Origin: Patescibacteria group bacterium
GTDB taxonomy: Bacteria > Patescibacteriota > Patescibacteriia > UBA9934
DNA: 64,000 bases
Direction: 5' to 3'
Assembly (NCBI GenBank): GCA_041666205.1
Contig: JBAYHI010000003.1
Coordinates: 13,215 to 77,214 of the forward strand
This document shows positions 15,724-63,086 of this stretch, in pieces. A program made the position numbers and the translations under genes. Numbering within the stretch: the first letter of the stretch is position 1; every line of letters starts with the position of its first letter. The notes under the pieces are model-generated. The model was not told the origin of the DNA. It made no database searches and saw only the letters and a program-made list of their open reading frames with translations.

Positions 15724-15750
15724 GGGTTGCCCGACCCGTACGACGACGTA
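15724..15750 (+). repeat. REP-like element: GTAC-led GC-rich hairpin 'gtacgggtcgggttgcccgacccgtac'
   Basis: Member of the hairpin family also seen at 21877, 62965 and 46641. Confidence 0.7.
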
Positions 15751-15763
15751 AATATTCCCGATT

Positions 15764-15792
15764 GCATAATGCAATCGGGAATTATTAATTGG
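15764..15792. promoter_or_regulatory. Perfect 13-bp-arm palindrome 'attcccgattgcat-aa-atgcaatcgggaat', a candidate operator upstream of the giant surface-protein gene
   Basis: Seen directly. Sits 20 nt upstream of an extended -10 (tgtTATACT, 15815..15823) that precedes the ATG at 15832. Confidence 0.4.
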
Positions 15793-15831
15793 GGATAATT
15801 CCGCGGGGGCTCGCGATTTTTTTGTTATACT

Positions 15832-18800
15832 ATGCTCAATATGAATCGCCGATTTTTTGCGCCGAAATATTTTTTCGTCGCACTTTCACTAATTCTTGGA
15901 ATTGGTCTTTTTGCGTACGCGGATTCTGCATCCGCTGCGGCGATTTCGTGGGATAGCGGTGGGGCGAACAACGATTGGGAAACGGTCGAAAACTGGTCGG
16001 GCGATGCCGTGCCAACCGATGCAGATGACGTGACGATTGATTATGCGGAGACGATTGCTATCAATGCAACAACAACGGTGAATTCTTTAACAGTCGGTGG
16101 TACGAACGCAACGGTTCTCAATTTCGATTACGATGCCATTACCGGCGGGGCACTTATTATTGATGCGGGGAACTTGACGGTTGCCGCAAATGGAACGATT
16201 ACGCATACAGGTGGGTCAACAAGCTCGGTTCTTGCCACGGTTTTTATTGATGTACAAACAGGCGACGCAACAATTACAGGAACAGTGAATGTGGACGGAA
16301 AGGGGTATGCAAAAGGGTATGGTACCGGAAAGGGTACGGGCTTTGGTGGAGGTGGTTACGGGGGCGAAGGCAGTGCTGGGAACGGAGGTACGGGAGGCAC
16401 AACATACGGCTCTATTACTGCTCCGACAGATCTTGGTAGCGGAGGATCTGGAAGCTGTAATGGTGGGGCTGGAGCCGGGTCTGTGAAGTTATTAGTTGCT
16501 GGCGGATTAACGGTTGCGGGAAGTATCTCTGCAACAGGTGCAACGTCCAATGAGTGGTGCGCTTCGCCGGGGTCGGGCGGGTCAATTTATCTGGATGCGG
16601 GGACATTTGCTGGAGCCGGGACGGTTGATGTGAATGGTGGAGCATATAGCTATTTTAATGCAGGCCAAGGTGGTGGCGGGCGTCTTGCAATTTATTATGA
16701 TACGAATACCTATTCGGGAACTCCAACCGCATACGGTGGCTATGACGCCTCCAATGGGTACTATGCCGGTGCGGGCACAGTCTATATTAAAGACAATGCC
16801 GATACATACGGAAGTCTCACAGTCGACAACAATAGTCATGACATGACAACCGATGATCGATATTTGGGAAAAACAAATCTTTCTTCAACAGCGACCTATA
16901 AAAATCTTACAATTTCCAACGACGGTCATATTGATTTAATTTCCGGAGCAACCATTACCGTTGATTCAACGTTTACGTGGACAGGTGGAAATGTCACAGA
17001 TAGCGGTGGGGTGCTTGCAACCATAACATCAGGGGATGTTGTTGTACCGGCGGGGTCTTACTTTTATGCAAATACGGCGCGCACTGGAGCAGGGGCGCTC
17101 ACAAGTCTTACGATAAATGGTGTTCTTACACATTCAACAAATAGTACCCTTACATCTTACGTATTGGATGTGGAAACAACAGGCGCAACAGATATTGCTA
17201 CCGGGGGATCGGTCAATGTTGCAGCGCGTGGTCTTCAAAGAGGGTATGGTACTGGCGCGGCTTCGGGTGATCGCAGTGGAGCTGGATATGGAGGAGAAGG
17301 GGGCACAGGATATACATTGGCAGGTGGTGGCACCACATATGGGTCTATTACGGCCCCAACGAGTTTAGGCAGCGGAGGCTTTTCTGGGTGTGCGTCTGGA
17401 AATGGGGGCGGGGCAATTAAGCTTACGGTTGGCGGGACGCTTACAGTGACTGGGAGCATTACCGCCAGCGGTGGAGCGAGTGGGGAATGGTGTGGTGGAG
17501 GAGGATCGGGTGGCTCTATTTATCTAGACACAGGTACAATCACAGGGGCGGGGGCCATTACATCTGCGGGTGGCGCGGCAACAACAGCGGATGCGGGAAA
17601 TGGCGGAGGTGGTCGCATCGCAATCTATTACGATGCGAGTACCTATTCTGGGACTCCAACCGCGTATGGAGGATACTTTTCGACGAATTATTTTGGCGGA
17701 GCTGGCACGATTTATATAAAAGACAATGCCGACACGTATGGAAGTCTTACGGTAGATAATAATAGTCGTGATATAACAACGGATGATCGGTATTATGGGA
17801 AAACAAATCTTTCTTCAACGGCAACCTATAAAAATATTACGATTTCCAATGACGGCCATATTGATTTAATTTCCGGAGCAACCATCACGGTTGATTCAAC
17901 GCTCACGTGGACGGGCGGGAATATTACAGATAGCGGAGGGGTATTGAGCTCGGTAAATTCCGGGGACGTTGTTATCCCTGCGAACGCTCGTTTCCTAGCG
18001 AATACAACGCGGAGTGTAACCTCGCTTACCGTGAATGGCACGATGACACACTCAAAAAATACGACAGTGGAGACACATAAAATAAACTATACAACGAGCG
18101 CAGATGTCACAATCGGTGCCTCTGGGACAATAAATGTAACTCAGCAAGGTTTTATTGGGGGCTATGGGGACGGTCATGGGCACGATGCAGGGGCGTATGG
18201 TTCTGGTGGAGGTTATGGAGGCGTTGGAGGGGATACGGCAGATGGTGGAGATACCGGAGGGATTACGTATGGCTCGGAAACAGCACCGTCCAATCTCGGT
18301 TCGGGCGGGATGGGTGAGGGCGCGTCAAACCTCGGATCATCGGGCGGTGGCGCAGTCAAGCTTTCGGTGGGTGGAAATTTGAGTATTGGTGGAACAATTG
18401 TTGCAAATGGTGGATCAGATTATAGTGGGTGGTTCTTGAATTATGGCGGTGGCTCGGGCGGTTCCATTTGGCTTGCTGTTTCGGGCGCGATATCTGGAGG
18501 AGGGAATGTTTCTGCACAGGGATCAAGCGCACAAAGTGCCGGCGCTGGTGCCGGGGGTGGTGGACGTATCGCGATGACCGCCGCATCAAGTACGTGGTCG
18601 GGTTCGGCGTCTGTTATTGCTGGCACAACCGGCTATGCCGGCGGTGTTGGTACAGTGTATGATAATTACGCTCCAACAGCTGGCAATCCTTCCAATACGT
18701 TTGCAACAGATGGGACGGGCGAGATGCTTGTTTCCCTTGTTGTTGACGATCCCGATGATGAAACACTTTCATTGAAGGTGGAATATTCTATGGACGGAGG

Positions 18801-21800
18801 CGGCACGTGGGAAGACCCAACACTTTCAGAAACGCTAGGGGATACAACCGCAAGTTTTGGGACGCCGGCCACGGAAAACGATAATGCGTATCAAATTTCC
18901 AGTGTTATCACGTCATCGGGTGCAAATACAATTGCGTTCGTGTGGAATTCAAAAACCGATGAGCCAACCGGCGATGTTACCAATGCGAAAATTCGCGTCA
19001 CGGTCAACGACGGCGGAATGGATGGGACGCCAGCAACGAGTACAAATACCACGCTCGATAATGCCGCACCAACCGGTCTTGCCGACTTGGCTGTCACTGC
19101 CTATCCTTCAACCTCACTTTCTCTTTCTTGGACTGCGGCAACATCAGAATCTCACTTTGATCATTACGAACTGTGGTATGGTTCGAATTCATCCGACGTC
19201 AACAATCGTACCGGTTCCGCGACGGAATGGGACAATGCGGATGATGGTGCGCTTGCAACCATGAGTACCACTTCTACCACCATTACGGGTCTTTCACAAA
19301 ACGTCACGTACTACGTAAAGATTTGGGCGGTGGATGATTACACCAATGAAGCAACGCTTGTTGCGATCTCACAAAAAACAAATGGGCTTCCAACCGCCGC
19401 GACCGTCACACCGACGTTTGCCACAGATGGAACTGGAAGAACGACTGTGACGGTCATTATTGACGACGCAGACGATCAAACGTCTTCATTCAAAGTTGAG
19501 TATTCCACAAATGGCGGAGGTGCTTGGGCAGATCCAACACTTTCCACAACCGCGGAGGATTTGTCTGGAACGTTTGGTACTCCAGCGCTCAATAATGCGT
19601 CTACCTACCAAATTAGCAATGTCACAACCGCGTCGGGCGCGAATACGATTTCGTTCGTTTGGAACTCTGGAACGGATGTTCCCACTGCAGATGTTTCAAA
19701 CGCTCTTATTCGAATTACTCCATACGACGGTGCAGAGGCGGGGTCGGGTGTGAATTCCGCGAGTTTCTCCATGGATAATGCGGACCCTTCTGGCATGGCA
19801 GGTCTTGGTGTTGGTTCATATGCGTCCGATGAAGTTGTGATGACCTGGACTGCAGTTTCTTCTGAAACCAATTTTGATCACTACGAACTCTGGTATGGGA
19901 CTAATTCCTCGGATGTAGATAACCGCACAGGGACGGCAACAGAATGGGATAATTCCGACGATGCCACGCTCGCTACCATGACAACGGCCACGACAACAAT
20001 TCCAAGTCTTGTGGCAAATACTACGTATTACATCAAGGTTTGGGCTGTTGACGATTACGGCAATGAAGCAACGCTTGCCTCAAGTACACAAAAAACAAAC
20101 GCTATTGTGACAGCCACTACACCGACCGCGACGGTTGCAACAGACGGCACGGGTGAGGTGACGGTTGTCACGACCATTGATGACGCCGACGACGAAGACT
20201 CCCGCTTCTTGGTGGAATATTCCATCGATGGCGGTGGCACCTATGCCAAAGCGACGCTTTCGGAAACGGATGTAGACACCACGGCCACCTATGGGGATCC
20301 GGATGTTGCCAATGTAAATTCCTACCAAGTTGGAAATGCCTCCGGCTACGTTACAACTGCCTCTGGGGCAAATGCGGTAACCTTCATTTGGAATTCGCAT
20401 ACCGACGTGCCAACGGCCGATGTTACAAATGCAAAAATTCGTGTCACACCAAATGATCAAATTGAAGACGGCACCGCAATGCCATCTGCTAATTTCACGC
20501 TAGATAATGCACATCCCCAAGCACTTGCAGATTTTGTGGTGAGCGCAAAGAGTGCAACGTCTGTTACACTTACCTGGACAGCAGCAACAGATACACACTT
20601 TTCACACTATGAAATTTGGTATGGCGAAGATTCCGGAGATGTTGATGGACGGACCGGTACTGCAACGGAATGGGATAATTCCGACGATGCAGCACTCGCA
20701 ACTGCAACAACCGCAACAACACGTATCCTTCCTCTGGAGTCAGCAACAACCTATTTCTTCAAGATTTTTGCTGTCGACGATTATACAAACGAAACAACGC
20801 AGGCAGCGACTTCTGTAAAAACCTCTTCAAGAGGGAGCACTGCGTCGCGACCGACGCCAGCACCGGATCTTACCAACCTCACCGTCTCCCAAGATGATGG
20901 CACAACCACCGCGTCGCTCATGGAAGAAAAATGGACATCTGTGAATTGGCTCTCGCTTGGCGCGGTGCCAAATGTGAATGTGTATTACTCGGTTGACGAA
21001 GGAGTAAATTGGCTCAAGTTTGTTGGCCCGATTGCCAATCGCGACAATATTGGATTTGTGATGCCAGCAGGACTGGGCACCACCTTTATGCTTCGCGTCA
21101 TTGGCACCGACCTTGCCGTCAATCTCGATACTGAGACAACAGGCATCCTCACCCTCATTCCTCGTCCAATGACAGTTGAACCCGAGGCTCCGTCGGTTGT
21201 TTACAAGCCGGTTGAACCTATCTATCCCACTGATCCTTGGCTTGGCGTACCAGACCTTAACCCGGAGTGGCCACAAGAAACCGCACCGTTTATCCCTCCG
21301 GTAAAAGAAACGCCAACCGTCATTCCAGGTCAGTCTCCAATTATTACCTACACCGAACCAGAAGCCATTTCTCCGGTAACGGGACTCGAAGAACCGGTGT
21401 CAGACGTGCAGCCTGGCGACTATATTAAGAGCCCAAGTTTCCCAACCGTTTACTATGTGACGGAAGATTTGGCACGCAAACCATTTGCTGATGCACAAAC
21501 CTATTTCACCTACGAGGCAAGTTTTGATCGTATCAAAGTTGTGACAGACGCAACGCTTACGCTCCTCAATCTTTCCGGCCCCATGCTTCCAAAGCCATCC
21601 ACCGTGCTTGTAAAAATTCAAAGTGATCCAAAGGTTTACGTAGTGTCAGAAAATCCAGAGAATCCTTATCGCCCAATTCTCCGTTGGCTCTCAAGTGAAG
21701 AGCTTGCTACCACGCTGTATGGCGCCCATTGGTCAGATTATGTGATTGACGTGCCGGTGACGCTCTTTGCACGGTTTGAGATCGGGAATGCCATTGGGCT

Positions 21801-21864
21801 CCTTGATTTCCAAAGTGCGTTTGAAAAATCAGCCATGAAATTGCGGAGCGCAATTGTTCGATAA
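15832..21864 (+). CDS. Giant secreted/surface repeat protein (2010 aa): signal peptide, three Gly-rich beta-helix-like repeats, three Fn3/Ig-like repeats, C-terminal domain
   Basis: N-terminal signal 'FFVALSLILGIGLFAYADSASA'. Tandem DNA repeats with about 940-bp period (16.27-18.65 kb) and about 720-bp period (18.66-20.82 kb), with high nucleotide identity between units. Confidence 0.85.
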   Translation: MLNMNRRFFAPKYFFVALSLILGIGLFAYADSASAAAISWDSGGANNDWETVENWSGDAVPTDADDVTIDYAETIAINATTTVNSLTVGGTNATVLNFDYDAITGGALIIDAGNLTVAANGTITHTGGSTSSVLATVFIDVQTGDATITGTVNVDGKGYAKGYGTGKGTGFGGGGYGGEGSAGNGGTGGTTYGSITAPTDLGSGGSGSCNGGAGAGSVKLLVAGGLTVAGSISATGATSNEWCASPGSGGSIYLDAGTFAGAGTVDVNGGAYSYFNAGQGGGGRLAIYYDTNTYSGTPTAYGGYDASNGYYAGAGTVYIKDNADTYGSLTVDNNSHDMTTDDRYLGKTNLSSTATYKNLTISNDGHIDLISGATITVDSTFTWTGGNVTDSGGVLATITSGDVVVPAGSYFYANTARTGAGALTSLTINGVLTHSTNSTLTSYVLDVETTGATDIATGGSVNVAARGLQRGYGTGAASGDRSGAGYGGEGGTGYTLAGGGTTYGSITAPTSLGSGGFSGCASGNGGGAIKLTVGGTLTVTGSITASGGASGEWCGGGGSGGSIYLDTGTITGAGAITSAGGAATTADAGNGGGGRIAIYYDASTYSGTPTAYGGYFSTNYFGGAGTIYIKDNADTYGSLTVDNNSRDITTDDRYYGKTNLSSTATYKNITISNDGHIDLISGATITVDSTLTWTGGNITDSGGVLSSVNSGDVVIPANARFLANTTRSVTSLTVNGTMTHSKNTTVETHKINYTTSADVTIGASGTINVTQQGFIGGYGDGHGHDAGAYGSGGGYGGVGGDTADGGDTGGITYGSETAPSNLGSGGMGEGASNLGSSGGGAVKLSVGGNLSIGGTIVANGGSDYSGWFLNYGGGSGGSIWLAVSGAISGGGNVSAQGSSAQSAGAGAGGGGRIAMTAASSTWSGSASVIAGTTGYAGGVGTVYDNYAPTAGNPSNTFATDGTGEMLVSLVVDDPDDETLSLKVEYSMDGGGTWEDPTLSETLGDTTASFGTPATENDNAYQISSVITSSGANTIAFVWNSKTDEPTGDVTNAKIRVTVNDGGMDGTPATSTNTTLDNAAPTGLADLAVTAYPSTSLSLSWTAATSESHFDHYELWYGSNSSDVNNRTGSATEWDNADDGALATMSTTSTTITGLSQNVTYYVKIWAVDDYTNEATLVAISQKTNGLPTAATVTPTFATDGTGRTTVTVIIDDADDQTSSFKVEYSTNGGGAWADPTLSTTAEDLSGTFGTPALNNASTYQISNVTTASGANTISFVWNSGTDVPTADVSNALIRITPYDGAEAGSGVNSASFSMDNADPSGMAGLGVGSYASDEVVMTWTAVSSETNFDHYELWYGTNSSDVDNRTGTATEWDNSDDATLATMTTATTTIPSLVANTTYYIKVWAVDDYGNEATLASSTQKTNAIVTATTPTATVATDGTGEVTVVTTIDDADDEDSRFLVEYSIDGGGTYAKATLSETDVDTTATYGDPDVANVNSYQVGNASGYVTTASGANAVTFIWNSHTDVPTADVTNAKIRVTPNDQIEDGTAMPSANFTLDNAHPQALADFVVSAKSATSVTLTWTAATDTHFSHYEIWYGEDSGDVDGRTGTATEWDNSDDAALATATTATTRILPLESATTYFFKIFAVDDYTNETTQAATSVKTSSRGSTASRPTPAPDLTNLTVSQDDGTTTASLMEEKWTSVNWLSLGAVPNVNVYYSVDEGVNWLKFVGPIANRDNIGFVMPAGLGTTFMLRVIGTDLAVNLDTETTGILTLIPRPMTVEPEAPSVVYKPVEPIYPTDPWLGVPDLNPEWPQETAPFIPPVKETPTVIPGQSPIITYTEPEAISPVTGLEEPVSDVQPGDYIKSPSFPTVYYVTEDLARKPFADAQTYFTYEASFDRIKVVTDATLTLLNLSGPMLPKPSTVLVKIQSDPKVYVVSENPENPYRPILRWLSSEELATTLYGAHWSDYVIDVPVTLFARFEIGNAIGLLDFQSAFEKSAMKLRSAIVR

Positions 21865-21876
21865 TTGCGTGATATT

Positions 21877-21924
21877 GTAGGGGTCGGGTTCCCCGACCCG
21901 TTGGGCGGGGAAACCCCGCCCGTA
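21877..21924 (+). repeat. REP-like pair: 'gtaggggtcgggttccccgacccg' plus 'gggcggggaaaccccgccc'
   Basis: Near-identical pair recurs at 62965..63016. Confidence 0.75.
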
Positions 21925-21940
21925 TGGCGTACGATAAAAT

Positions 21941-21986
21941 AAAAAACCCTCCCGAAGCTCCGAAGGAGCGAAGGAGGGTTTTTTAT
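21941..21986. terminator. Bidirectional intrinsic terminator between the giant gene and rpmA
   Basis: 'aaaaaaccctcccgaagctccgaaggagcgaaggagggttttttattt': stem ccctcc/ggaggg flanked by an A-run and a T-run. Confidence 0.7.
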
Positions 21987-21990
21987 TTGA

Positions 21991-22272
21991 TTAAACCGCT
22001 TTGATAATTTCGACGAGCGTTTTCATGAACAGAGCGCCGTGGAAATTTGGAAGTTTTTTTTGTTTGAATTTGACCGTGCCGTTGACTGCGGCGTAGAGGG
22101 TATCGTCTTTTGCGCGGAGCACGTTTTTGCCTGGACGATATTTCGTGCCACGCTGTTTGATGATGATTTCGCCAGCACGCACAAGTTCGCCATCCGTCTT
22201 TTTCAGACCTAAGCGTTTTGCCACGGAATCGCGGCCATTACTGGTAGAACCTTGGGCTTTTTTGTGTGCCAT
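21991..22272 (-). CDS. rpmA: 50S ribosomal protein L27
   Basis: '[51 protein letters not shown]' is the L27 signature. ATG at 22272 is chosen over the longer ORF. Confidence 0.92.
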
Positions 22273-22421
22273 AGGGCGATAATTTTTAGAACGTCTTTTG
22301 ACGTGAACGGGTGAAATTGTACCCAAATGAGCCAAAAACGTCAAGTGGAATGGGGATTGTGGATGAGGTACGTCTGGAGGGAGGCGAAAAAAGGAGTATA
22401 CTAGCCCTATAACCTCAATGC

Positions 22422-23862: not shown

Positions 23863-23863
23863 T

Positions 23864-26050: not shown

Positions 26051-26074
26051 GTAGGGACGTTGCGTGCAACGTCC
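26051..26074 (+). repeat. REP-like element 'gtagggacgttgcgtgcaacgtcc' preceded by 'cgcc'
   Basis: The 'cgccgtagg' leader is shared with 62961. Arms 'agggacgttgc/gcaacgtccct' recur at 63029..63086. Confidence 0.6.
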
Positions 26075-26129: not shown

Positions 26130-26519
26130 CTAGGCAGCGATGGGGCAGAGAACAAGCGCGCCCGCGCACCAGGAATCGACCTCGGAAAACCAGGCTCTTC
26201 TCCAGGCTTTTTCCGGGTCTTTCTCTTGTTCATCGTGAACGAAACAGAGGAAATCGTCTTGACCATTCCTCATATTAGTCACGAGAATGTGAACGCCACG
26301 AAAAGGCGGTTCTGCTTTCGGCTTGCCCTTTGTTGGCTTTGCCTTGAGACCTCTTTCGAGAGCGTCGATGTCTCCTCTTGAGGCCACGGGGTCACGAATT
26401 CGTTTGAAGATCTCGGGTGCGGGGATCGTCTTTTCCTCAGGCTTGAGGAAACCGACCGCCACGAACTCGCGACCATCGTCGAGCATAAACGAAATACGGG
26501 TCTCGGAATGGGGGGTCAT
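26130..26519 (-). CDS. Hypothetical protein (GC about 58%), SD-led, immediately downstream of the RAYT transposase
   Basis: ATG at 26519 preceded by AGGAG with 5-nt spacing. The overlapping + strand ORF looks like antisense. Confidence 0.5.
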   Translation of the reverse strand: MTPHSETRISFMLDDGREFVAVGFLKPEEKTIPAPEIFKRIRDPVASRGDIDALERGLKAKPTKGKPKAEPPFRGVHILVTNMRNGQDDFLCFVHDEQEKDPEKAWRRAWFSEVDSWCAGALVLCPIAA

Positions 26520-26577: not shown

Positions 26578-27099
26578 TCAAGGTTTGCGGTGATTATGTG
26601 GGTTTTGCTGGATGTATTCGCGGACCCGGTCGAGATCACGCGGGGAACGAATGACGTGTTCGTAATAACCCCGTTGCCAAAAGGATTTTTTGAATTTCGG
26701 CCAATACCCGGCATACACGCCTCGAATATATTCATTTGTGGTTTTTGTTTTGAAAAAATTAATCATATCCGCCAATGATTTCGATTCTGTAGGGGCGGCC
26801 CAATGTGGCCGCCCGTTTGCAATTTGAATGATGCCATGGAAATGATCGGGCATAATGATAAATTCATCCAATCGCGTATTTGCAAAATGATCCGGGATTT
26901 GATTCCAAATGTTTTGAATCATATCCCTGGCCTGGGATAAACGCATTTCTTGCGGGCGGCCACATTGGGCCGCCCCTACGGTAAATAATTTCTGGCGACG
27001 ATACAAACAAATCGTCACAAAATAATATCCCTCCTGCGCATAATCATATTGCGGCAAACGGATCGATCTCCGAACAGGCAAATGCGAATTTCCTAACAT
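26578..27099 (-). mobile_element. IS200/IS605-family Y1 tyrosine transposase (REP-associated tyrosine transposase, RAYT-like)
   Basis: HuH motif 'MPDHFHGIIQI' and catalytic-Tyr region 'FWQRGYYEHVIRSPRDLDRVREYIQQNP'. N-terminal 'RRSIRLPQYDYAQEGYYFVTIC' is typical of this family. Carries two copies of a GTAG hairpin in inverted orientation inside the CDS. Confidence 0.85.
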
Positions 27100-44759: not shown

Positions 44760-45884
44760 ATGAAAACATACGGGATCGATGTGAATGCTTTGACCCGGGC
44801 GCGTAAAACTGGAACAGAGCGCTATGTTTTCGAGCTTTTAAAAGAAATGATAAAAACACCGCTTCAAAATGAAGAGCGGGTTGTTTTGTATTCAAGCGCG
44901 CTAATCCCAGAGCTTGGCACGCTCCCAAATGGATGGATCCTCAAGATTCTCGATTGGAAGCTCAAAAAAGCGTGGACTCACGCTCGACTTAGCTGGGAAC
45001 TTCTTACACGAACACCAGATGTATTTTTTAGTCCCGCGCATGAGATTCCGCTTTTTCACCGACGAACAAAATTTGTATCCACCGTGCATGATGTTGCATT
45101 TCGGATTGTGCCTGAGGTTTATTCCAAGAAGAGCGTGAAGCGGCAGGAATGGGCGGTTGCTCGTGCACTCAAGCTCGACCAGAAAATCATCACGATTTCT
45201 GAAACGTCCAAAAACGATTTGGTGAATCTGTATCATGTGGCACCAGAGCGTATTGCCATCACGCCTCTGGCCGTGCATCCGGAAGCATTTGCAACGGTCG
45301 AGGCCGATAAACAAAACGTTTTGGATAAATATCGCCTCAATGCCGGTCTTTATTTTGTAACGGTTGGGCGCGTTGAGAAAAAGAAAAATATTCCGTTTCT
45401 TTTGAGCACATTTGAAGCGTTTAAGCGTGATCGTGGCATTGGCGACCCATATCAACTGGTGCTTGCCGGCACATTTGGGGAAGATGCAAAGGAAATTCAA
45501 GCACAAATCGAAAAATTAGTATGCAAAGATGTTGTGCGCGTTTTGGGATATGTTCCCGACGCAGAATTGCCAGGGCTTCTGGCTGGTGCCGTCGCTTACG
45601 TTTTTCCAACACGTTACGAAGGATTTGGCATTCCAGCACTCGAGGCAATGGCTTCGCGCATTCCACTTATCGCGTCCGATATTCCGGCGCTTCGTGAAGT
45701 TGCGGGGGATGCAGCCCTTTTTGCAGGAGTTGAGGATGCTGGGGCGTGGATTGAAGCGATGCAAAAAATTGTCGATAATGAATCGCTTCGCGCGGATTTG
45801 GTACTAAAGGGTGCACAGCGTTTGCATGACTTTTCTTGGGTAGAGACGGCAAAAAAGACGTGGGAGGTGTTGCGAAGTGTGTAG
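44760..45884 (+). CDS. Glycosyltransferase family 4
   Basis: C-terminal 'EGFGIPALEAMASRIPLIASD' E-x7-E motif. ATG at 44760, 2 nt after the mreB stop. Confidence 0.8.
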   Translation: MKTYGIDVNALTRARKTGTERYVFELLKEMIKTPLQNEERVVLYSSALIPELGTLPNGWILKILDWKLKKAWTHARLSWELLTRTPDVFFSPAHEIPLFHRRTKFVSTVHDVAFRIVPEVYSKKSVKRQEWAVARALKLDQKIITISETSKNDLVNLYHVAPERIAITPLAVHPEAFATVEADKQNVLDKYRLNAGLYFVTVGRVEKKKNIPFLLSTFEAFKRDRGIGDPYQLVLAGTFGEDAKEIQAQIEKLVCKDVVRVLGYVPDAELPGLLAGAVAYVFPTRYEGFGIPALEAMASRIPLIASDIPALREVAGDAALFAGVEDAGAWIEAMQKIVDNESLRADLVLKGAQRLHDFSWVETAKKTWEVLRSV

Positions 45885-46656
45885 TATGCGCGATCTCGTT
45901 CACGATTTAGTTCGACTTGGATTTTCTGAAAAAGAAGCCGAAGGCTATGTGGCGCTTTTATCTTTAGGGAAAGCACCGGTGCAGGTGATTGCGCAGAAAA
46001 CCGGAATCAATCGGGCGAGTGTTTACCATGTGCTCGATGCCTTGGTGAAAAAAGGATTAGCAATCGTGTCAGTCGAGCATGGAGAAAAAATGTATTCAGC
46101 CGAACCGCCGGCTCGTTTGATTACGCATTTGAGCATTCAAATGCAAGAGCTCGAAGAACGTCGACGCCTGGCAGACGGGCTCATGATGCGTTTGCAGGTT
46201 TTTTACAATACAAGCGGAACCAAGCCAAAGATTTCGTATATTGAGTCGGTGGATGGACTTCGAATGCTTCAGCGGGAATATGAGGAAATGGGGGAGGACA
46301 TGATTCAAATTGTTGGCTACGATGCATTTTTGGCGCTTCGCGATACGTCAGCATCTAAGATTCACCAAAAAGAATTGGCGCGTCAGCATCGACGTGTACG
46401 ATCAATTATTGTGACAGACCGCAAGGTTGAGTTCCCAGATTTTCCGGAAATGGAAATTGTGGTGATTCCAAAAGGCGTTGTTGAAATTGATGGGGAAATG
46501 ACGGTTTGTGGCGACCGGCTTGTGATGTTTTCGTATGCGTCCGGGATTATCGCCGTTGAAATCAAATCAAAAACAATTGCAAATACAGCAAAAGCAACGC
46601 TTGAGCTCGCTTGGAAAGAGGCAAAACGCTTCGATTCTGTACGGGCAGGTCTGTGA
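45877..46656 (+). CDS. TrmB-family transcriptional regulator (HTH + sugar-binding-like domain)
   Basis: 'LGFSEKEAEGYVALLSLGKAPVQVIAQKTGINRASVYHVLDALVKKGL' is a TrmB HTH. GTG start at 45877 with GGAGGT 9 nt upstream; alternative ATG at 45886. The 3' end is overlapped by a REP hairpin. Confidence 0.7.
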   Translation: MCSMRDLVHDLVRLGFSEKEAEGYVALLSLGKAPVQVIAQKTGINRASVYHVLDALVKKGLAIVSVEHGEKMYSAEPPARLITHLSIQMQELEERRRLADGLMMRLQVFYNTSGTKPKISYIESVDGLRMLQREYEEMGEDMIQIVGYDAFLALRDTSASKIHQKELARQHRRVRSIIVTDRKVEFPDFPEMEIVVIPKGVVEIDGEMTVCGDRLVMFSYASGIIAVEIKSKTIANTAKATLELAWKEAKRFDSVRAGL

Positions 46657-46694
46657 CCTGCCCTTTTCGTATGGGCTTGACATGCCAAGCCCAT
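46641..46694 (+). repeat. REP-like hairpin pair: 'gtacgggcaggtctgtgacctgccc' plus 'atgggcttgacatgccaagcccat'
   Basis: The 5' flank 'tcgattctgta' is identical to the flank of the REP copy inside the RAYT gene (26781..26791). The stem gggcaggtc/gacctgccc recurs at 50561. Confidence 0.7.
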
Positions 46695-46795
46695 ACGGCT
46701 CGACACTGAAACAAAAATCCGCCCCCACGATGTGAAATCATGAATGCGGATTTTCCCCCGAACCCTGCGCGGTACGCATGGTTCGGAGACGAGAA

Positions 46796-49938: not shown

Positions 49939-50376
49939 TTACTCGCTGGTAAGTTGGAATCCATTGGCGCGAAATCGTTCGCGTATGGCTTCCAGTTGCT
50001 CCGGGTATTTCTCCTTCATTTCCCGAAGCAGACGCTGTGCCGCCTCGTTGTAGGTTTCCATCCGAACCGTGTCTGGCGGTTCGAGGTGGATCCACAAGGG
50101 GACGGAGTCGAGATAAAAAGCGATTTCCGATAGCAGATAAGCTCTGCTGTCATATCGGGCACGAATACTCATCTCCTTGATTGAAATGCCCTTAGCTTTT
50201 TCTGGAAGCTGAATGGCAACCAATATGAAGATGATTCCCCATGCTCGACGTTCGGACATTGAAGTTTGTTTGAAGATCTCGACAAGGGTATCGATCATGA
50301 GCTTCTGAACCACGGATGCCTGAGGTGACACGAGTTTTTCAAGCTTTGTGCCCTGCATCATAATGAAATGAAGCAT
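49939..50376 (-). CDS. Hypothetical protein (146 aa)
   Basis: First ATG of a longer ORF (49939..50766). The upstream extension runs through a REP hairpin cluster and starts at TTG, so it is trimmed. Confidence 0.45.
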   Translation of the reverse strand: MLHFIMMQGTKLEKLVSPQASVVQKLMIDTLVEIFKQTSMSERRAWGIIFILVAIQLPEKAKGISIKEMSIRARYDSRAYLLSEIAFYLDSVPLWIHLEPPDTVRMETYNEAAQRLLREMKEKYPEQLEAIRERFRANGFQLTSE

Positions 50377-50560
50377 TCTAGCACGAAGATTAAAATCGCG
50401 TCTTTTCTGGAACCTCTCGAGGTCCCGTTGTATACGTTTTTTTATATCCAAGACGGTTTTTTCCTTTGAAAAAGAACCGGGAATAATAGCAGAAAAATAG
50501 CGATTTGTCAAGCCATACCAAGGCAATTTTTGGCGAAAATTGCGTGAATTGTGACGAATT

Positions 50561-50703
50561 GGGCAGGTCGCAGACCTGCCCGTACGGAATCGAATCCGCG
50601 TAGGGGCGGCCCAATGTGGCCGCCCCTTGGTAATATGATTCGAATCGAGGATGAAGCAATCAAATCGAGAATGACGGGCAGACGCTTGGGTCTGCCCGTA
50701 CAG
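50561..50703. repeat. BIME-like cluster of three GC-rich hairpins
   Basis: The three hairpins are 'gggcaggtcgcagacctgcccgtacgg', 'gtaggggcggcccaatgtggccgcccc' and 'gacgggcagacgcttgggtctgcccgtacag'. The middle hairpin is identical over 26 nt to the two copies inside the RAYT gene. It is flanked by inverted 'gaatcgaatcc / gattcgaatcg'. Confidence 0.75.
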
Positions 50704-50921
50704 ATTTGGATCTGCTGGAGTGTGGCCACGCAATTCCTGTCCTTCCGCCGGATTCCTCTTTGACAATGCTCGAGCCGGCGAATCGAAAAAAACAGGCTAC
50801 CGAACACAGCCCGACCGGAAAAACATGCCTGCCCTGGACGGTTTGGTTCTTCAGATGTTTTTCCGGGCTGACCAATTGCGAGGTCAGGATGGGCTATAAG
50901 AAAACAGACCCTTTCTTTTCC

Positions 50922-50986
50922 CCCCTCTTTTCTTTGGGTCCAGCAAAGAAAAGAGGGGCCAGGGTTAAAGGGGCAGGATGCCCCTT
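50922..50986. repeat. Two strong hairpins upstream of holB
   Basis: 14-bp perfect stem 'cccctcttttcttt-N9-aaagaaaagagggg' and 'aggggca-gga-tgcccct'. Followed by TATAAT (50993..50998) 9 nt before the holB ATG. Confidence 0.55.
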
Positions 50987-51007
50987 ATATGCTATAATCA
51001 CCTTGTT

Positions 51008-53595: not shown

Positions 53596-53597
53596 GT

Positions 53598-54914: not shown

Positions 54915-54917
54915 TCT

Positions 54918-56201: not shown

Positions 56202-56207
56202 AGACGT

Positions 56208-56978: not shown

Positions 56979-56980
56979 CT

Positions 56981-57796: not shown

Positions 57797-57832
57797 AAAA
57801 ACCTCGGGGCAAGGCCTCGAGGTTTTTGATTT
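57797..57832. terminator. Bidirectional intrinsic terminator
   Basis: 'aaaaaaacctcggggcaaggcctcgaggtttttgatttt' between the convergent TPR gene and rpmG. Confidence 0.7.
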
Positions 57833-57871
57833 TACCCTCCGTAGCTCTGTTGTGGCAGAGCGAAGGACGGG

Positions 57872-58027
57872 TTACTTTGTTTCTTTGTGACCGGTATGGG
57901 CTTTGCATTGCTTGCAGAACTTTTGGAGTTCCAAGCGAGTTTTGAGGGTTTTGACGTTTTTGTGCACGCGGTAATTCACGGTTTTGCACGTCGTACACTC
58001 CAATTTGATCATGTTGTCTTGTGACAT
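57872..58027 (-). CDS. rpmG: 50S ribosomal protein L33
   Basis: 'MSQDNMIKLECTTCKTVNYRVHKNVKTLKTRLELQKFCKQCKAHTGHKETK' is an L33 zinc-ribbon (CxxC...CxxC). Internal ATG chosen over the 96-aa ORF. Confidence 0.85.
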   Translation of the reverse strand: MSQDNMIKLECTTCKTVNYRVHKNVKTLKTRLELQKFCKQCKAHTGHKETK

Positions 58028-58188
58028 AGGGATTGTTTGAATGGGGGAAGTGTACGTAATCGCGGCAGTTTTGTCAATTCCCGCAGGGGCTTGGATTGAC
58101 AAATCGCCATTTTTTTGATAGTTTTTTCGGTTCCTCGAGTGAGGACAACAGGTCATTCCCACTAGATTTTTCTCCGCGGAGGTTTGAA

Positions 58189-59256
58189 ATGCAGTCCTAC
58201 ATCCAGTGCGTGCCCGGGAACCACAACCGGTGCGAGGCGCAGGGGCACGGGAAGCGTCTTATCCGGGATGGAACGTGTTCGATTGGTCGGGCCTGGGCGT
58301 TGCGCGCCCTGCCCTGCGCCGGGTGTGAGATGCTGGTGCCCGCGCACCTCGGAAAGCGCGTGAATCCGGCGTTCGTGGTTGCGATCGCGGGGGTCGGGAA
58401 CATCAAGGTCGCGCCCGGAGCATTCATGCTCTACGCGGCCGTCACCGTCGACCCCGAGGCGCGCTTGTGCGACGAGTGCGCGGAAAAGCTCGCGAGCGCT
58501 GTGCAGAACGGCTCGGGGAAGCCCGGGTTCGTTCATCTCGGTTCGCAGGTCGTCCCGCTTCTCATGAGCCCCACGACTGCGCAGACCGAACTTGCGCGCT
58601 GTGAGGAGGCGCGGGCCCTGGAGCGCGCCGAGCGCGTCCAGAAGATCGTGGCGCTCGTCGAGCGAATTCGCGCGGGATCTCAGGTCGCATTCGCGCGCAA
58701 GATGCGCGAGGGCGGTGAGCTTTGGACCGAATGCACGACGCACCGCAACACGCCCGACGGCACGTGCTTTGACGATGAATCCGCTCACTACGGCTACGCC
58801 AACTGGCACGAGATGCCGTCGATTCGCGCCGACAACAAGGTCTTCGGATTCTGCCCGACTTGCGCCAAGGAAGCGAAGGGCGCCGGCGTGGAGTTCAACG
58901 GCATGATGGCCGCGCTCGTCGCGCAGGTGCAGAATTTGCCCTACACGAATCCGAGCGATCGGGGGCGGAGTGGCAACACTGCGCTTGGTCACATCACGAC
59001 CGTGGACGAAGCTTCGCGTGAGATTGGGGCGCGTCTCACGCTTGCTCAGAAGTCCGATGGTCAGCGGGACTGGGTCGCACGGAATTTCGAGTTCGGTGCG
59101 ACCGGGATGGGGCGGAAGCATCGCGTGACGCGCAAGCCCGTACAGCTCTCGCCCGAAGAAATCGAGCGTCGTCGGGCCGAGCGCGCGAAGCGCAAGGCCG
59201 ATGAGAAGAGACAGCAGAAGAAGGGGGGAGGCGGCAACAAGAAGAAGGGCCGCTAG
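58189..59256 (+). CDS. Hypothetical high-GC (about 66%) protein with multiple CxxC zinc-ribbon-like motifs and a Lys/Arg-rich C-terminal tail
   Basis: ATG at 58189 preceded by GGAGGT with 5-nt spacing. Composition differs sharply from flanking genes. The opposite-strand 369-aa ORF looks antisense (R/L/A-rich). Confidence 0.55.
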   Translation: MQSYIQCVPGNHNRCEAQGHGKRLIRDGTCSIGRAWALRALPCAGCEMLVPAHLGKRVNPAFVVAIAGVGNIKVAPGAFMLYAAVTVDPEARLCDECAEKLASAVQNGSGKPGFVHLGSQVVPLLMSPTTAQTELARCEEARALERAERVQKIVALVERIRAGSQVAFARKMREGGELWTECTTHRNTPDGTCFDDESAHYGYANWHEMPSIRADNKVFGFCPTCAKEAKGAGVEFNGMMAALVAQVQNLPYTNPSDRGRSGNTALGHITTVDEASREIGARLTLAQKSDGQRDWVARNFEFGATGMGRKHRVTRKPVQLSPEEIERRRAERAKRKADEKRQQKKGGGGNKKKGR

Positions 59257-59362
59257 TCCCTCGTATCCCACCTCACGCGAGGTGGGCTCAAGTCCGCAGC
59301 AACGTCACCGGTGGTGGCCTTGTCTGCGGGCTTTTTGGTTTGTTGTGAACAGATCAAACGCG

Positions 59363-59368
59363 TATAAT
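59363..59368 (+). promoter_or_regulatory. -10 box TATAAT 6 nt upstream of the ATG at 59375 (leaderless-type)
   Basis: Same arrangement as at 27843, 36454 and 50993. Confidence 0.5.
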
Positions 59369-59374
59369 GCGAGT

Positions 59375-61189
59375 ATGCACGTACATATTTGGCGATGGTT
59401 TTTTTGGTCTGGCATCCTCTTTATTGTCTTGGGAGGCGTGTTTGCGATTGGTCTTACGCTTGGGCTTATTTGGAAAAATGAGTTTGAGCTTCCGGTGCGC
59501 GAAGTAGGACCCCTGTATTCCTCGGGATTGCAAACGAAAGATTTTTTTGATGGTGCGTATGCAGCTGCGGAGCCAGGTGATTCGGTTTCGGTTGTGAGCG
59601 CAGTATCAGCGCATCATCTTTTGGTTGCAAAAGAGATTGCTTCGCTTTTTGAAACGATTGGTTCGGGGAGTGTCAAAACCGTCATTGTGGTGAGCCCGAA
59701 TCATTTTGATGCTGGTGTTCACCCCGCGCAGGTTTCATTCGGAAATTGGGAAACGCCGTATGGCATGGTGGAATCTTCCACGAAAGCGCGTGTGCTTGCA
59801 AATCGTGGTGGGATCGTTTGGAATGAAGAAAAAGCATTTGAACAAGAGCATGGTATTGGAGCACTCACGCCATTTGTCGCGCATTCATTTCCAAACGCGA
59901 AAATCATTCCGCTCGTGATTGATGATTCGCTCACCGCGGATGAAGCAAAGGTTGTTGCGGGCGAACTCTACGACGTTGCGCCCGACGCCATTCTGATTGC
60001 GTCCTCTGACATGTCGCACTATTTGCCAAGTTTGGCGTCGGATTACCACGACGAGGTGACGGAGAATTGCTTGGCGCGTGGAATTGCGTGTTTAGAAAAT
60101 TTGAATTTGGAAGTGGATACAAATGCCGTGCTTCAGGTTTTGGGTGAGTGGAATCGTTTGCAGGGCACGCAAGTGTGGACGCAAACCTATCACGGCAATT
60201 CGCTTGCCATGGGCATTGGCGACGCAGCAGAAGAAAATACAAGCCATATTCTGGGGTACTTTACAAAAGGTGCGCCGGTGACGTCACCCTCGGCTTCCAT
60301 TCATTTCGTTGGTGACATTATGCTTGATCGTGGTGTGCGAAAAGCAATCGATGCAGCCGGTGGCGACCCGAATTTTCCCTGGCAGCACGTGATGCGCTTT
60401 TTGCAAGGATCAGATTTGCGCGTTGGCAACCTGGAAGGAACCGTGAACGAACAACAAAGCACCTATACCTACGATCCGCCATTTCGATTTGTCTTTTCGC
60501 CAAGCTATGTGGAAGCAATGAAACCATTCATCGACGTGGTATCGCTTGCCAATAATCACGTCTGGGATGTGGGCAGTGCTGGGGAAACTGAAACGCATAC
60601 CTGGCTGGATTCCATGGGCATTCCGTGGTTTGCTTCGTATAAATCGCCAGTGCCACGCTACGACCAAGATATTAACGGAATCCCGATTACGCTCATTGGC
60701 TATCATTCATTCCAGCCCGACGAGGATTTACTGCTGGAGACGATTGCAACCGCACAAAGTGATGGGCGATTTATCATCGTCATGCCACATTGGGGCGTTG
60801 AATATGAACATCAACCGCAAACCGCACAACGGGCACTGGCTCAGAAAATGATCAACGCTGGCGCTGACCTTATTATGGCCGGTCACGCACATGTGCCAGA
60901 GGGGATTGAAGTCATCGACGGCGTGCCAGTTCTTTACTCGCTTGGGAATTTCGTTTTTGATCAACAGATTCCGGAAACCTGGTCCGCACTCACGGCTGGA
61001 GTGATTATCACGGATGAAAAAATCGAAATTAACCTCCTGCCAGTGGACGTCAGTTTGAAAGCGCCAAAGCCGATGGAGGGCGATAAAGCCACCGCACTCC
61101 TCAAACACCTTGCGGAGTATTCCGACGACGTGCTAAAAGAACAAATAATTAATGGCAAACTAATTTTTGACCGATATGAAACAAACTAA
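59375..61189 (+). CDS. Fusion protein: N-terminal TM + Memo-like (AmmeMemoRadiSam system protein B family) domain + C-terminal CapA/PGA_cap metallophosphatase-like domain
   Basis: Memo-like 'VVSPNHF...HGIG...SSDMSHY'. CapA-like 'SLANNHVWDVG...GHAHVPEGIEVIDGVPVLYSLGNFVFDQ'. Confidence 0.6.
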   Translation: MHVHIWRWFFWSGILFIVLGGVFAIGLTLGLIWKNEFELPVREVGPLYSSGLQTKDFFDGAYAAAEPGDSVSVVSAVSAHHLLVAKEIASLFETIGSGSVKTVIVVSPNHFDAGVHPAQVSFGNWETPYGMVESSTKARVLANRGGIVWNEEKAFEQEHGIGALTPFVAHSFPNAKIIPLVIDDSLTADEAKVVAGELYDVAPDAILIASSDMSHYLPSLASDYHDEVTENCLARGIACLENLNLEVDTNAVLQVLGEWNRLQGTQVWTQTYHGNSLAMGIGDAAEENTSHILGYFTKGAPVTSPSASIHFVGDIMLDRGVRKAIDAAGGDPNFPWQHVMRFLQGSDLRVGNLEGTVNEQQSTYTYDPPFRFVFSPSYVEAMKPFIDVVSLANNHVWDVGSAGETETHTWLDSMGIPWFASYKSPVPRYDQDINGIPITLIGYHSFQPDEDLLLETIATAQSDGRFIIVMPHWGVEYEHQPQTAQRALAQKMINAGADLIMAGHAHVPEGIEVIDGVPVLYSLGNFVFDQQIPETWSALTAGVIITDEKIEINLLPVDVSLKAPKPMEGDKATALLKHLAEYSDDVLKEQIINGKLIFDRYETN

Positions 61190-62960
61190 GGTCGAGCCCG
61201 TCGACATGACGGAGCAAGTACCCGTGCCCGAAGTTACAGCTCCCAAATTCAATAAAACGCTTCTGATTGCAATTGCAGCCCCGGTGGTTGTCTTGCTCGT
61301 GATTGCGTCATTCATCAGTGGCTTGCTGGTTTCGCGACTGATTGCCAATGAGACAGAAGTTGAGGATGAGGTTATTGATGGCTCTGATGAAACTGATACG
61401 GAAGAAGTATTTTTAGATGTGGAGTTTTTACCGATTGCGGCTCAGGAAAAAGTTGAATTAAATCCAGGACTCGTTGCAACATTTTCAAAACCTGATTCCA
61501 CATTTTCAGTTGATGAGAGTTCTGCCTATCTTTTGGGAGTTGTTCAGGGTGGAACCTATGATGGGTATGAGCTCGTACAAAATATTTTTGGCTCTTTAGG
61601 AATGGGGTGGGCGTATGATTATTATTATGTTCTTGAAAACCCAAACGATCGCATAGATGCAGTGCTTCTTAGCCGTTATATGAGTTATATGGGAATGTGG
61701 GAATTCCCGGTGAGAGAGTCTGATACAACAAATGGGGATACGTTTAGTACAACAATTACAGATGGAGAGCTTGCTATTCCTGAATTTGAAATGTCGTCAA
61801 CAATTACAGATGTTAATGAAATTTTGTTTGATTATGCAGGATTGTTGAACCGAATTGATTTTGAAGGTGTAGATGCGAATAAAGCGCCAAAGATTGGAAG
61901 CTCATGGTCGCAACTTGCGGACGGAACCGTTGTGTATGAAATGGTCGAGGGGACTTCAACTGTGTATGAGGATAGTTTTTATACGATTCGACCCGACAAT
62001 CGGTACGCCATTTATGAAGTGAATGTCCCATTCTGGACGGCTGGTCCGGAAGGAGATTTGAATGTGCCAAATACACCAAATATCATTTGGGAGGATGGAT
62101 CGAGAAATACGGATGAATATCTCCGCGGAGATCAATCCAGATGTGGCATGAGCTCCATTACAAACGTGGCGTCAGATATCACAGATAGCGATTTGATTTT
62201 TGCTGGAACAATCGAAAGTGAACGCGTCTTTACACCAAAAACGCTAACAGCTGATCGTTATAAGAGTAGTATCGCATCGTATAATTCTTTTTCAGGTGAA
62301 GAAGAAGTTACGCTCGAAGAATTGCAAGAAATACATCCGTATTTTTACTGGCAGGATTCACTTGGTCGTTGGATTGAATTTACGAATGTGAATTTTCTTC
62401 CGGCTGCAGAATGTGGCAAGCCGGTTATTTACCTCTACCCAGAAGAAACCACGCAGGTGAATGTACAATTGGCGCCGGTGGGAGGATTTTCCTACACCGA
62501 GCCGGCATATGGTATGGGATGGAATGTGGTGGCAGAGCCAAATGGCGAGCTCACAAATCTATCCGATGGAAAAACATATCCATATCTTTTCTGGGAAGGT
62601 AAAGGTGGACTTTACCAGGCACCAGAGAAATATTGGGTGATTGCAAAAGCTGATGTAGAAGGATTTTTGACTTCAACGCTTGCGCAACTTGGGCTTAATG
62701 AAAAAGAAATTGCAGACTTCAATGAGTTCTGGCTTCCACGCATGCAAAATGCGCCGTACTACAAGATTGGATTCCATGGAACGAGTGTTATGAACGCTCT
62801 GGCGCCAATGCAAATAACGCCTGCGCCAGATTCAGTACTGCGAATCCTCATGGATTATCAAGAGCTCGATACGGCAATCCCATCGAACCCGCCAACGCTT
62901 CCAAAAACATTTGAGCGAACAGGATTTACGGTTGTGGAATGGGGAGGGGTGATTCAATAG
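61176..62960 (+). CDS. Hypothetical membrane-anchored extracytoplasmic protein (595 aa)
   Basis: TM helix at residues about 30-55, acidic linker and a large soluble domain. ATG at 61176; the track start at 61167 is TTG. Confidence 0.5.
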   Translation: MKQTKVEPVDMTEQVPVPEVTAPKFNKTLLIAIAAPVVVLLVIASFISGLLVSRLIANETEVEDEVIDGSDETDTEEVFLDVEFLPIAAQEKVELNPGLVATFSKPDSTFSVDESSAYLLGVVQGGTYDGYELVQNIFGSLGMGWAYDYYYVLENPNDRIDAVLLSRYMSYMGMWEFPVRESDTTNGDTFSTTITDGELAIPEFEMSSTITDVNEILFDYAGLLNRIDFEGVDANKAPKIGSSWSQLADGTVVYEMVEGTSTVYEDSFYTIRPDNRYAIYEVNVPFWTAGPEGDLNVPNTPNIIWEDGSRNTDEYLRGDQSRCGMSSITNVASDITDSDLIFAGTIESERVFTPKTLTADRYKSSIASYNSFSGEEEVTLEELQEIHPYFYWQDSLGRWIEFTNVNFLPAAECGKPVIYLYPEETTQVNVQLAPVGGFSYTEPAYGMGWNVVAEPNGELTNLSDGKTYPYLFWEGKGGLYQAPEKYWVIAKADVEGFLTSTLAQLGLNEKEIADFNEFWLPRMQNAPYYKIGFHGTSVMNALAPMQITPAPDSVLRILMDYQELDTAIPSNPPTLPKTFERTGFTVVEWGGVIQ

Positions 62961-62964
62961 CGCC

Positions 62965-63016
62965 GTAGGGGTCGGGTTCCCCGACCCGGCAACGGGCGAG
63001 GAAACCTCGCCCGTAC
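62965..63016 (+). repeat. REP-like pair 'gtaggggtcgggttccccgacccg' plus 'gggcgaggaaacctcgccc'
   Basis: Near-identical to 21877..21924. Preceded by the 'cgcc' leader as at 26047. Confidence 0.75.
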
Positions 63017-63028
63017 GACGATTCGAAT

Positions 63029-63086
63029 AGGGACGTTGCATCCTCCTTCGCTCTTCGAGCTTCGGCGGGACAAGTGCAACGTCCCT
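63029..63086. repeat. Inverted repeat 'agggacgttgca' ... 'tgcaacgtccct' (34-nt spacer), related to the 26051 REP
   Basis: Seen directly. The ORF 63074..63349 5' extension runs through it and is likely spurious. Confidence 0.6.

Follow-up and report, generated by a model that had tools for sequence, protein, structure and literature searches.

The stretch of DNA analysed here (the window) comprised 64,000 nucleotides from the metagenome-assembled genome (MAG) of a Patescibacteria group bacterium, contig JBAYHI010000003.1, positions 13,215 to 77,214. It carries a dispersed family of short, GC-rich hairpins led by a four-base foot, in the manner of repetitive extragenic palindromic (REP) elements, and a gene for a REP-associated tyrosine transposase (RAYT, TnpAREP). 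The features were as follows; hairpins are written as foot, 5' arm, loop (lower case) and 3' arm.

15715 to 15741, no strand assigned: double-foot REP, GTAC GGGTCGGG ttg CCCGACCC GTAC, a 13-bp perfect palindrome (z −6.2) starting 5 nt past the pyrG stop codon (15710)
21877 to 21899, plus strand: REP, left half of a doublet, GTAG GGGTCGGG ttc CCCGACCC; the doublet sits after a gene of 2010 amino acids (stop at 21864)
21903 to 21925, minus strand: REP, right half of the same doublet, ATAC GGGCGGGG ttt CCCCGCCC on the minus strand
26051 to 26074, plus strand: REP, GTAG GGACGTTG cgtg CAACGTCC, 6 nt past the murG stop codon (26045) and 504 nt beyond the RAYT stop codon
26578 to 27099, minus strand: RAYT/TnpAREP gene, 173 amino acids, intact open reading frame (ORF)
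26789 to 26814, plus strand: REP in frame within the RAYT ORF, GTAG GGGCGGCC caatgt GGCCGCCC, encoding GRPHWAAPT
26954 to 26979, minus strand: REP in frame within the RAYT ORF, identical to and inverted relative to that at 26789, encoding VGAAQCGRP
46639 to 46663, plus strand: REP, GTAC GGGCAGGTC tgt GACCTGCCC, with the flank TTCGATTCT before it and TTTT after it
46669 to 46696, no strand assigned: double-foot REP-like palindrome, GTAT GGGCTTG acatgc CAAGCCC ATAC
50561 to 50585, minus strand: REP, hairpin 1 of 3 in a cluster, GTAC GGGCAGGTC tgc GACCTGCCC on the minus strand
50600 to 50627, plus strand: REP, hairpin 2 of 3, GTAG GGGCGGCC caatgt GGCCGCCC CT, identical to both RAYT-internal copies
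50675 to 50701, minus strand: REP, hairpin 3 of 3, GTAC GGGCAGAC ccaagc GTCTGCCC on the minus strand
62965 to 62987, plus strand: REP, left half of a doublet, GTAG GGGTCGGG ttc CCCGACCC, after the gene at 61176-62960
62993 to 63016, minus strand: REP, right half of the same doublet, GTAC GGGCGAGG ttt CCTCGCCC on the minus strand
63027 to 63085, plus strand: long-loop variant with an ATAG foot, a 34-nt loop and arms GGGACGTTGCA / TGCAACGTCCC, which are the arms of the 26051 REP

Both strands were scanned for an [AG]TA[GCT] foot and, starting no more than two bases after it, a stem of at least 7 bp and at least 60% GC. The window gave 15 matches, representing 13 distinct hairpins because the two double-foot palindromes, with a foot on both sides (15715-15741 and 46669-46696), score on both strands. 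The long-loop variant is additional to these 13 perfect hairpins. In thirty dinucleotide-preserving shuffles of the window, footed hairpins averaged 0.43 and never exceeded 4. Six segments (doublets, cluster and singletons) were folded as single-stranded DNA (ssDNA) and gave z-scores of −4.0 to −8.1. The footed hairpins are genuine and far above chance expectation, and they account for 13 of the 22 GC-rich perfect hairpins of at least 8 bp in the window. Each unit comprised the foot, a perfect stem (mostly 8-9 bp, range 8-13 bp) and a loop of 3-6 nt. The stem base was GGG or CGGG in 12 of the 13 stems; at 26051 it was GGA, unless the last G of the foot is counted. Strand bias relative to GC skew was uninformative, each doublet giving one copy per strand.

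All copies named in the initial annotation were present, at or within a few bases of where it had placed them. Its three-hairpin cluster and its copy at 63029 were likewise found, with the corrections that the middle hairpin of the cluster starts at 50600 and that the ATAG foot of the last copy lies at 63027. The window is part of a 250,590-bp ENA contig, from which 7.1 kb of new upstream and 9.0 kb of new downstream sequence were added. These flanks (16 kb) held three further REPs, one doublet and one single, a density like that in the window; the sampled 80 kb carries approximately one copy per 5 kb (13-14 copies in 64 kb plus 3 in 16 kb). Feet in the window and flanks together (17 copies) were GTAG (8), ATAG (1), GTAC (6), ATAC (1) and GTAT (1).

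Several units recurred at unlinked sites. The 26-nt GGGCGGCC REP was present in three copies with unrelated flanks: GTAGGGGCGGCCCAATGTGGCCGCCC occurs twice, identical, in frame and mutually inverted, in the RAYT ORF and a third time at 50600-50627. The stem GGGCAGGTC/GACCTGCCC is common to the hairpins at 46643 and 50561 in opposite orientations, which bears out a shared stem reported earlier for 46641 and 50561. The doublet, in which a GGGCGRGG hairpin comes after a GTAG-footed GGGTCGGG hairpin, was found in three copies, at 21877, at 62965 and outside the window at 12186-12234 of locus L116. The foot of the GGGCGRGG hairpin is on the opposite strand, so both doublet feet point outward. The first hairpin (24 nt) was identical across all three copies. 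The second was identical in two and carried a compensatory pair of changes (G>A and C>T) in the third, the hairpins at 21903 and 62993 being one such pair apart. A description of the two window doublets as near-identical over about 48 nt therefore had to be given up: identity covers the first 24 nt, beyond which lie the compensatory pair and spacers of 2 versus 5 nt. The sequence surrounding the doublets was unrelated between copies. Judged by these sequences, the doublets present the picture of a mobile unit with sharp ends.

An 11-nt flank, said in the initial annotation to be shared by position 46631 and a RAYT-internal copy, was confirmed: TCGATTCTGTA is exact at 26781 and 46631. A copy of the flank with one mismatch, at 50583-50593 on the minus strand, also abuts a REP. 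The motif TTCGATTCY precedes three window copies and was seen beside that REP type in L121, an unrelated metagenome contig; the flank is therefore apparently part of one REP subtype.

The protein encoded at 26578-27099 matched Pfam Y1_Tnp at 28.4 bits (cut-off 23). It contains the HUH motif (H86-F-H88), W141-Q142, E147-H148, R151 and Y162 within YIQQNP, and has no C-terminal tail. W141-Q142, E147-H148, R151 and Y162 align with W94-Q95, E100-H101, R104 and the catalytic Y115 of Escherichia coli TnpAREP (4ER8). The HUH context is DHFH, and the closest homologues have either D or N at the first position. The tyrosine motif Y162-IQQNP carries the class signature Y---NP and matches five of the six positions of the subclass signature YIxNNP. 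An AlphaFold model built with 22 homologues had a mean pLDDT (predicted local distance difference test) of 81.5 and a pTM (predicted template modelling score) of 0.79. Its best PDB match was 4ER8_A (E 2.4e-7, TM 0.57/0.60, approximately 19% identity), followed by IS200/IS605 transposases. An identical protein has been recorded for a MAG named "Patescibacteria group bacterium", with the JGI label RayT; the next homologue is only approximately 50% identical. Binding and cleavage of REPs by this protein are its predicted function, by analogy with known TnpAREP enzymes.

REPs lie within approximately 1 kb of the RAYT gene, two inside it and one at 26051, which is the REPtron arrangement. In the model the two REP-encoded peptides form lower-confidence loops (residues 43-51 and 95-104) flanking the HUH strand: GRPHWAAPT, from the 26789 REP, lies in the loop just after this strand, and VGAAQCGRP, from the 26954 REP, in the loop joining strand beta1 to helix alphaA. 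In homologues, both sites carry variable inserts, with peptides typical of translated REPs. The insert after the HUH motif was present in almost all homologues, and the one before it in approximately 13% of the 117 closest scorable homologues. In-frame GTAG-footed hairpins were confirmed at the DNA level in five homologous genes from other phyla. As single-stranded RNA, the internal REP pair of the window gene is predicted to form a 27-bp stem enclosing the 137 nt that encode the HUH motif.

Species-representative genomes were scanned for the core TA[GC]GGGTCGGG-NNN-CCCGACCC. It was found in at least 114 genome stretches from more than ten phyla, and the matches listed came from Patescibacteria, Poribacteria, Chloroflexota, Cyanobacteria, Ignavibacteria, Armatimonadota, Clostridia, Gammaproteobacteria and others. 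The source MAG was not among the matches listed in the genome scan with TASGGGTCGGGNNNCCCGACCC. The free base before the core was G in 115 of the 133 matches listed, and a GTAC foot on the same stem was found in only 7 of these 133 (other phyla). An inverted partner ending in CTAC lay beside many of the core matches listed. At five of the matched loci the RAYT homologue, too, contains in-frame REPs. Recurrence of the GGGTCGGG stem was rejected as evidence of recent transfer: each genome holds many different GGGNNNNN stems. In the Poribacteria sequence OZ220744.1 (L009, L016, L022, L026 and many other loci), a longer repeat with identical flanks (atacttcgTAGGGGTCGGGTCACCCGACCCccttgttgatatgcaaaacttatatgactgag…) includes the GGGTCGGG REP and was seen in about 30 of the stretches listed.

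Five of the seven window REP sites overlap a stop codon or lie within 4-13 nt of one. These are the ends of pyrG, the giant gene, murG, a TrmB-like gene and the 61176 gene, whose identities were confirmed. The exceptions are the two copies in the RAYT ORF and the 50561-50701 cluster. This cluster lies between a strong minus-strand promoter-like site (50511->50483, 11/12 matches) and holB on the plus strand, and is probably not at a gene 3' end. The initial annotation had placed the family at the 3' ends of genes, which stands for these five sites, fails for the RAYT-internal pair and probably fails for the cluster. It had also noted a REP overlapping the TrmB stop. This is correct: the loop and 3' arm of the 46639 REP contain the stop codon of the TrmB-like ORF (45877-46656).

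Gene ends in the window were compared with those on the contig carrying the closest MurG on record (66% identical), hereafter the relative. Window and relative share the gene order L9, pyrG, large surface protein, L27, mraY, ftsW, murG, tRNA-Lys, glycosyltransferase. In the relative, three orthologous sites, those after pyrG, the large gene and murG, are free of REPs; plain T-tailed hairpins follow its pyrG and large genes. RAYT and the neighbouring ORF129 are absent from the locus in the relative, and its tRNA-Lys is on the other strand. Its single REP, GTAG GGGCAGGTC tgt GACCTGCCC, lies after a rotamase gene, at a site that is empty in the window. The comparison of orthologous sites proposed in the initial annotation thus gave a difference in presence or absence at all four comparable sites, and the hairpins have therefore been gained and lost and are not ancestral terminators.

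The proposal that the REPs also serve as transcription terminators was not sustained. A T-run in sense orientation follows one hairpin of the 13, that at 46643-46663 (TTTT), which passes a terminator scan. The 21877 doublet lies between a stop codon and a separate canonical terminator (approximately 21946-21985), and the relative has a terminator at the matching position after its large gene without any REP; for this reason the REPs are not regarded as the terminators of these genes. That the family consists of ordinary Rho-independent terminators resembling each other by chance is accordingly very improbable and already largely refuted. The five sites at or near stop codons and the TTTT-tailed hairpin agree with it. 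It leaves 12 of 13 hairpins without a sense T-tail, and would not lead one to expect a conserved 5' foot or identical sequences at unlinked sites. Also against it are the two copies within an ORF, the cluster in a divergent promoter region, the separate canonical terminator after the 21877 doublet and the plain terminators without REPs at the orthologous sites of the relative. We give as little credence to an independent origin of the hairpin at each site, through selection for stable 3' RNA hairpins and without a transposase. The mostly post-stop placement and the compensatory change in one stem would suit such an origin. Set against it are the sharp boundaries of identical units in unrelated flanks, the conservation of the foot at the DNA level with the same foot in more than ten phyla, and the copies lying within the RAYT gene and within homologous RAYT genes elsewhere.

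The hairpins are most probably GTAG-class REP elements, with their spread attributable to the RAYT at 26578-27099, an enzyme that fits subclass 2.4 (RAYT group 4). A REP family with a RAYT gene had already been recognised in the initial annotation, and is upheld by the foot, the enzyme motifs, the fold and the copies beyond the window. By analogy with E. coli TnpAREP, the RAYT would recognise the hairpin and its 5' tetranucleotide foot on ssDNA, and would cleave and rejoin the DNA beside the foot, with a covalent phosphotyrosine intermediate. In this way it would copy or move single REPs and outward-footed inverted doublets, mostly into the short spaces after stop codons. The REPs after genes would then be transcribed within the 3' untranslated region, where the RNA hairpins could act, for example, against 3' exonucleases, by analogy with E. 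coli; a role as 3' RNA hairpins is plausible on this analogy.

Several observations weigh against this attribution. The NCBIfam REP_Tyr_transpos score of the RAYT is 66.3 bits, under the curated cut-off of 80. About half of the copies have non-canonical feet (GTAC, ATAC or GTAT, compared with the canonical GT[AG]G), so that cleavage by the RAYT at these feet is putative. Stem sequences vary greatly, at least eight of them occurring in 80 kb (GGGTCGGG, GGGCGGGG/GGGCGAGG, GGGCGGCC, GGGCAGGTC, GGGCAGAC, GGACGTTG and TGGGCTTG among them), and this variety is as compatible with an old family that has diversified as with an active family. In three other assemblies, contigs matching the window at 99.98-100% identity showed no REP insertion or deletion differences; every REP site was identical in them, and no transposition event or insertion polymorphism was seen. 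A 74-nt indel between the window and contig L001 was considered as a REP polymorphism and rejected, being a run of N in the scaffold.

A relic family is a possible, if less likely, explanation: the REPs would have spread in the past and now be immobile, with the RAYT domesticated or idle and the hairpins neutral or useful to the host as structures. The lack of insertion polymorphism among the four assemblies is in its favour, though as evidence this is weak because the other assemblies may sample the same clonal population. The strong diversification of stems and feet agrees with it too, as does the finding, in the accessible text of PMC5581495 and PMC6006769, that RAYTs behave more like housekeeping genes than transposases. 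It is opposed by the perfectly identical 24-26-nt copies at unlinked sites, by an intact RAYT ORF with all catalytic residues kept, and by the differing occupancy in the relative at four of four comparable sites. Identical unlinked copies and differing occupancy argue, at the level of sequence comparison, for mobility over evolutionary time. The initial description of the system as active or recently active is unproven, as the three other assemblies carry no REP differences.

A more speculative extension of the RAYT reading, to which we assign a low probability, treats the RAYT gene and its embedded REP pair as a self-contained seed. The abundant GTAC copies would reflect a broadened or shifted foot specificity of this enzyme, and the internal stem might let the enzyme sense or limit its own expression. 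If so, horizontal transfer of the gene alone would bring both the enzyme and a template REP, which would explain why one REP type is found across many phyla and also in a reduced Patescibacteria genome.

Patescibacteria (candidate phyla radiation, CPR) genomes are usually regarded as streamlined. The sampled 80 kb indicate that a REP/RAYT system can nevertheless reach the density given above in such a genome; no description of REPs in Patescibacteria (CPR) was found in searches of an open-access library, where the REP sequences, looked for as text, matched only unrelated primers. The locus adds a clear example of REPs within a transposase gene, an oddity of subclass 2.4, and its GTAC-foot variant could be used to probe how RAYTs read the foot. 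The annotation and assembly of such MAGs are also affected, through a stop codon supplied by a REP, spurious ORF extensions and an assembly break.

Further observations were made at individual REP sites. The last residues of the TrmB-like regulator (…DSVRAGL) and its stop codon are encoded by the 46639-46663 REP, and insertion of the REP appears to have replaced the original C-terminus. Gene callers extend the minus-strand ORF at 49939-50766 through all three cluster REPs. The strong promoter-like site (TTGACA, 17-nt spacer, TATTAT and an upstream TG) points to a true gene start downstream of the cluster. An independent assembly breaks at 50775, 74 nt beyond the REP cluster. Between 48150 and 49930 (approximately 1.8 kb) there is no convincing ORF, and the GC content is 55.6% compared with approximately 48% elsewhere. 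A search of the ORF-poor 47.6-51.1 kb against Rfam gave no match at E≤1 except chance microRNA ones. The segment 58096-59271 has a GC content of 57.7% and long overlapping ORFs of 386 amino acids (plus strand) and 369 amino acids (minus strand).

Compared with 11078-11485 of the relative's locus L119, the segment 26130-27333 has gained a REP, ORF129, the RAYT and an 83-amino-acid ORF, and its tRNA-Lys is inverted. By its sequence, the murG-to-glycosyltransferase spacer has the look of a small insertion or rearrangement beside a tRNA gene. ORF129 (26130-26519, minus strand, beside the RAYT) had no Pfam match and no homologue in any comparison locus; it was considered as part of the REP/RAYT system and no link was made.

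A second hairpin family, CCCTCC-GRAGCTC-loop-GAGCGAAGGAGGG, was present in the window at 21946-21985 (plus strand) and 63042-63066 (minus strand), in L117 at 16387-16421, and in L121 at 10545-10577, 10632-10662 and 10709-10741. T-rich tails follow the copies at window 21946 and L117 16387, and these hairpins may be a shared terminator type. The 63042-63066 copy lies in the 34-nt loop of the 63027-63085 variant.

A non-coding element of approximately 285-420 nt lies directly to the right of the REP cluster, at 50705-50990 (plus strand). The source contig has a second copy at 18424-18844 of L117 (minus strand; window-equivalent approximately 69.6-70.0 kb). The two are 90% identical, with four single-base, frame-breaking indels. 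The unrelated contig L121 carries the element at 5071-5369 (plus strand) and 3-232 (minus strand). In its full form it has similar 13-15-bp hairpins at both ends in the same orientation (CTCCACTTTCTTTGG..CCAGCAAAGAAAGTGGAG). RNAalifold, run on three copies, gave 60 pairs, 7 of them with compensatory double changes, and no Rfam match was found. The window copy is without the 5' hairpin and approximately 125 nt where the REP cluster abuts, and one L121 copy is interrupted by a REP. From its sequence features the element may represent either a new small RNA that has paralogues or a non-autonomous element of the IS200/IS605 type, and its novelty may exceed that of the REP finding.

The REPs of E. 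coli have stems that are longer and bulged and fall into a few defined types (Y, Z1 and Z2); conserved linkers join these REPs into bacterial interspersed mosaic elements (BIMEs). Like them, the window copies are GTAG-footed extragenic palindromes, often in alternating pairs just after genes. As with E. coli TnpAREP (4ER8, subclass 2.2), there is a single-copy HUH/Y1 protein of the same fold with the same foot-recognition residues. Unlike the E. coli elements, those of the window have short (8-9 bp), perfect stems of great diversity and non-conserved linkers, measuring 2 or 5 nt in the doublets and being unrelated sequence in the 50561-50701 cluster. The term BIME-like, used in the initial annotation, is therefore apt for the pairs of alternating orientation but not for the linkers.

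The REPINs of Pseudomonas (Bertels and Rainey 2011, PMC3116915) resemble the window elements in their inverted REP doublets, sharp boundaries, recurring units and single-copy RAYT. The halves of the intergenic window doublets differ in stem and, unlike REPINs, fold as two separate hairpins; self-pairing of the REPIN type is predicted only for the RAYT-internal pair (27-bp stem around 137 nt). The GTAG REPs surveyed by Di Nocera et al. (2013, PMC3733652) are described in the accessible part of that paper as lying after ORFs, as forming dimers and as having intragenic copies. The window family shares with them the GTAG tag, a preference for sites after unidirectional or convergent ORFs, an occurrence as singles, dimers and clusters, occasional in-frame intragenic copies and overlaps with ORF ends. 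It differs in its RAYT-internal REPs and GTAC feet, neither of which is described in that part of the survey.

The closest agreement was with subclass 2.4 as given by Quentin et al. (2018) in the accessible text of PMC6006769, which equates it with RAYT group 4 of Bertels et al. (2017). Its enzymes carry the motifs NH[IFV]H, WQ and YIxNNP, have no tail domain and have a variable insert between the beta3 HUH strand and helix alphaC. The stem base of its REPs comprises three G-C pairs, and a "double foot" is found in some. REPs in frame within tnpAREP are described there as a notable trait peculiar to the subclass, which is scattered across phyla. The window RAYT likewise has an H-F-H HUH motif, WQ, Y---NP, no tail and a post-HUH insert; its REPs are GTAG-footed with three G-C base pairs, include double-foot forms and occur in frame in the RAYT gene; and the taxonomic distribution is similarly patchy over many phyla. 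Neither "Patescibacteria" nor "candidate phyla" is named in that text. The window system departs from the subclass in having DHFH rather than NH[IFV]H and YIQQNP rather than YIxNNP, in the length of the RAYT (173 compared with a median of 194 amino acids), in the GTAC, ATAC or GTAT feet on about half of the REPs, and in a second in-frame REP before the HUH motif. The system is one already described in kind, a genuine REP family with a cognate subclass 2.4 RAYT. Of modest interest are its Patescibacteria host, the high frequency of the GTAC foot and the two identical, inverted REPs on either side of the HUH-coding segment.

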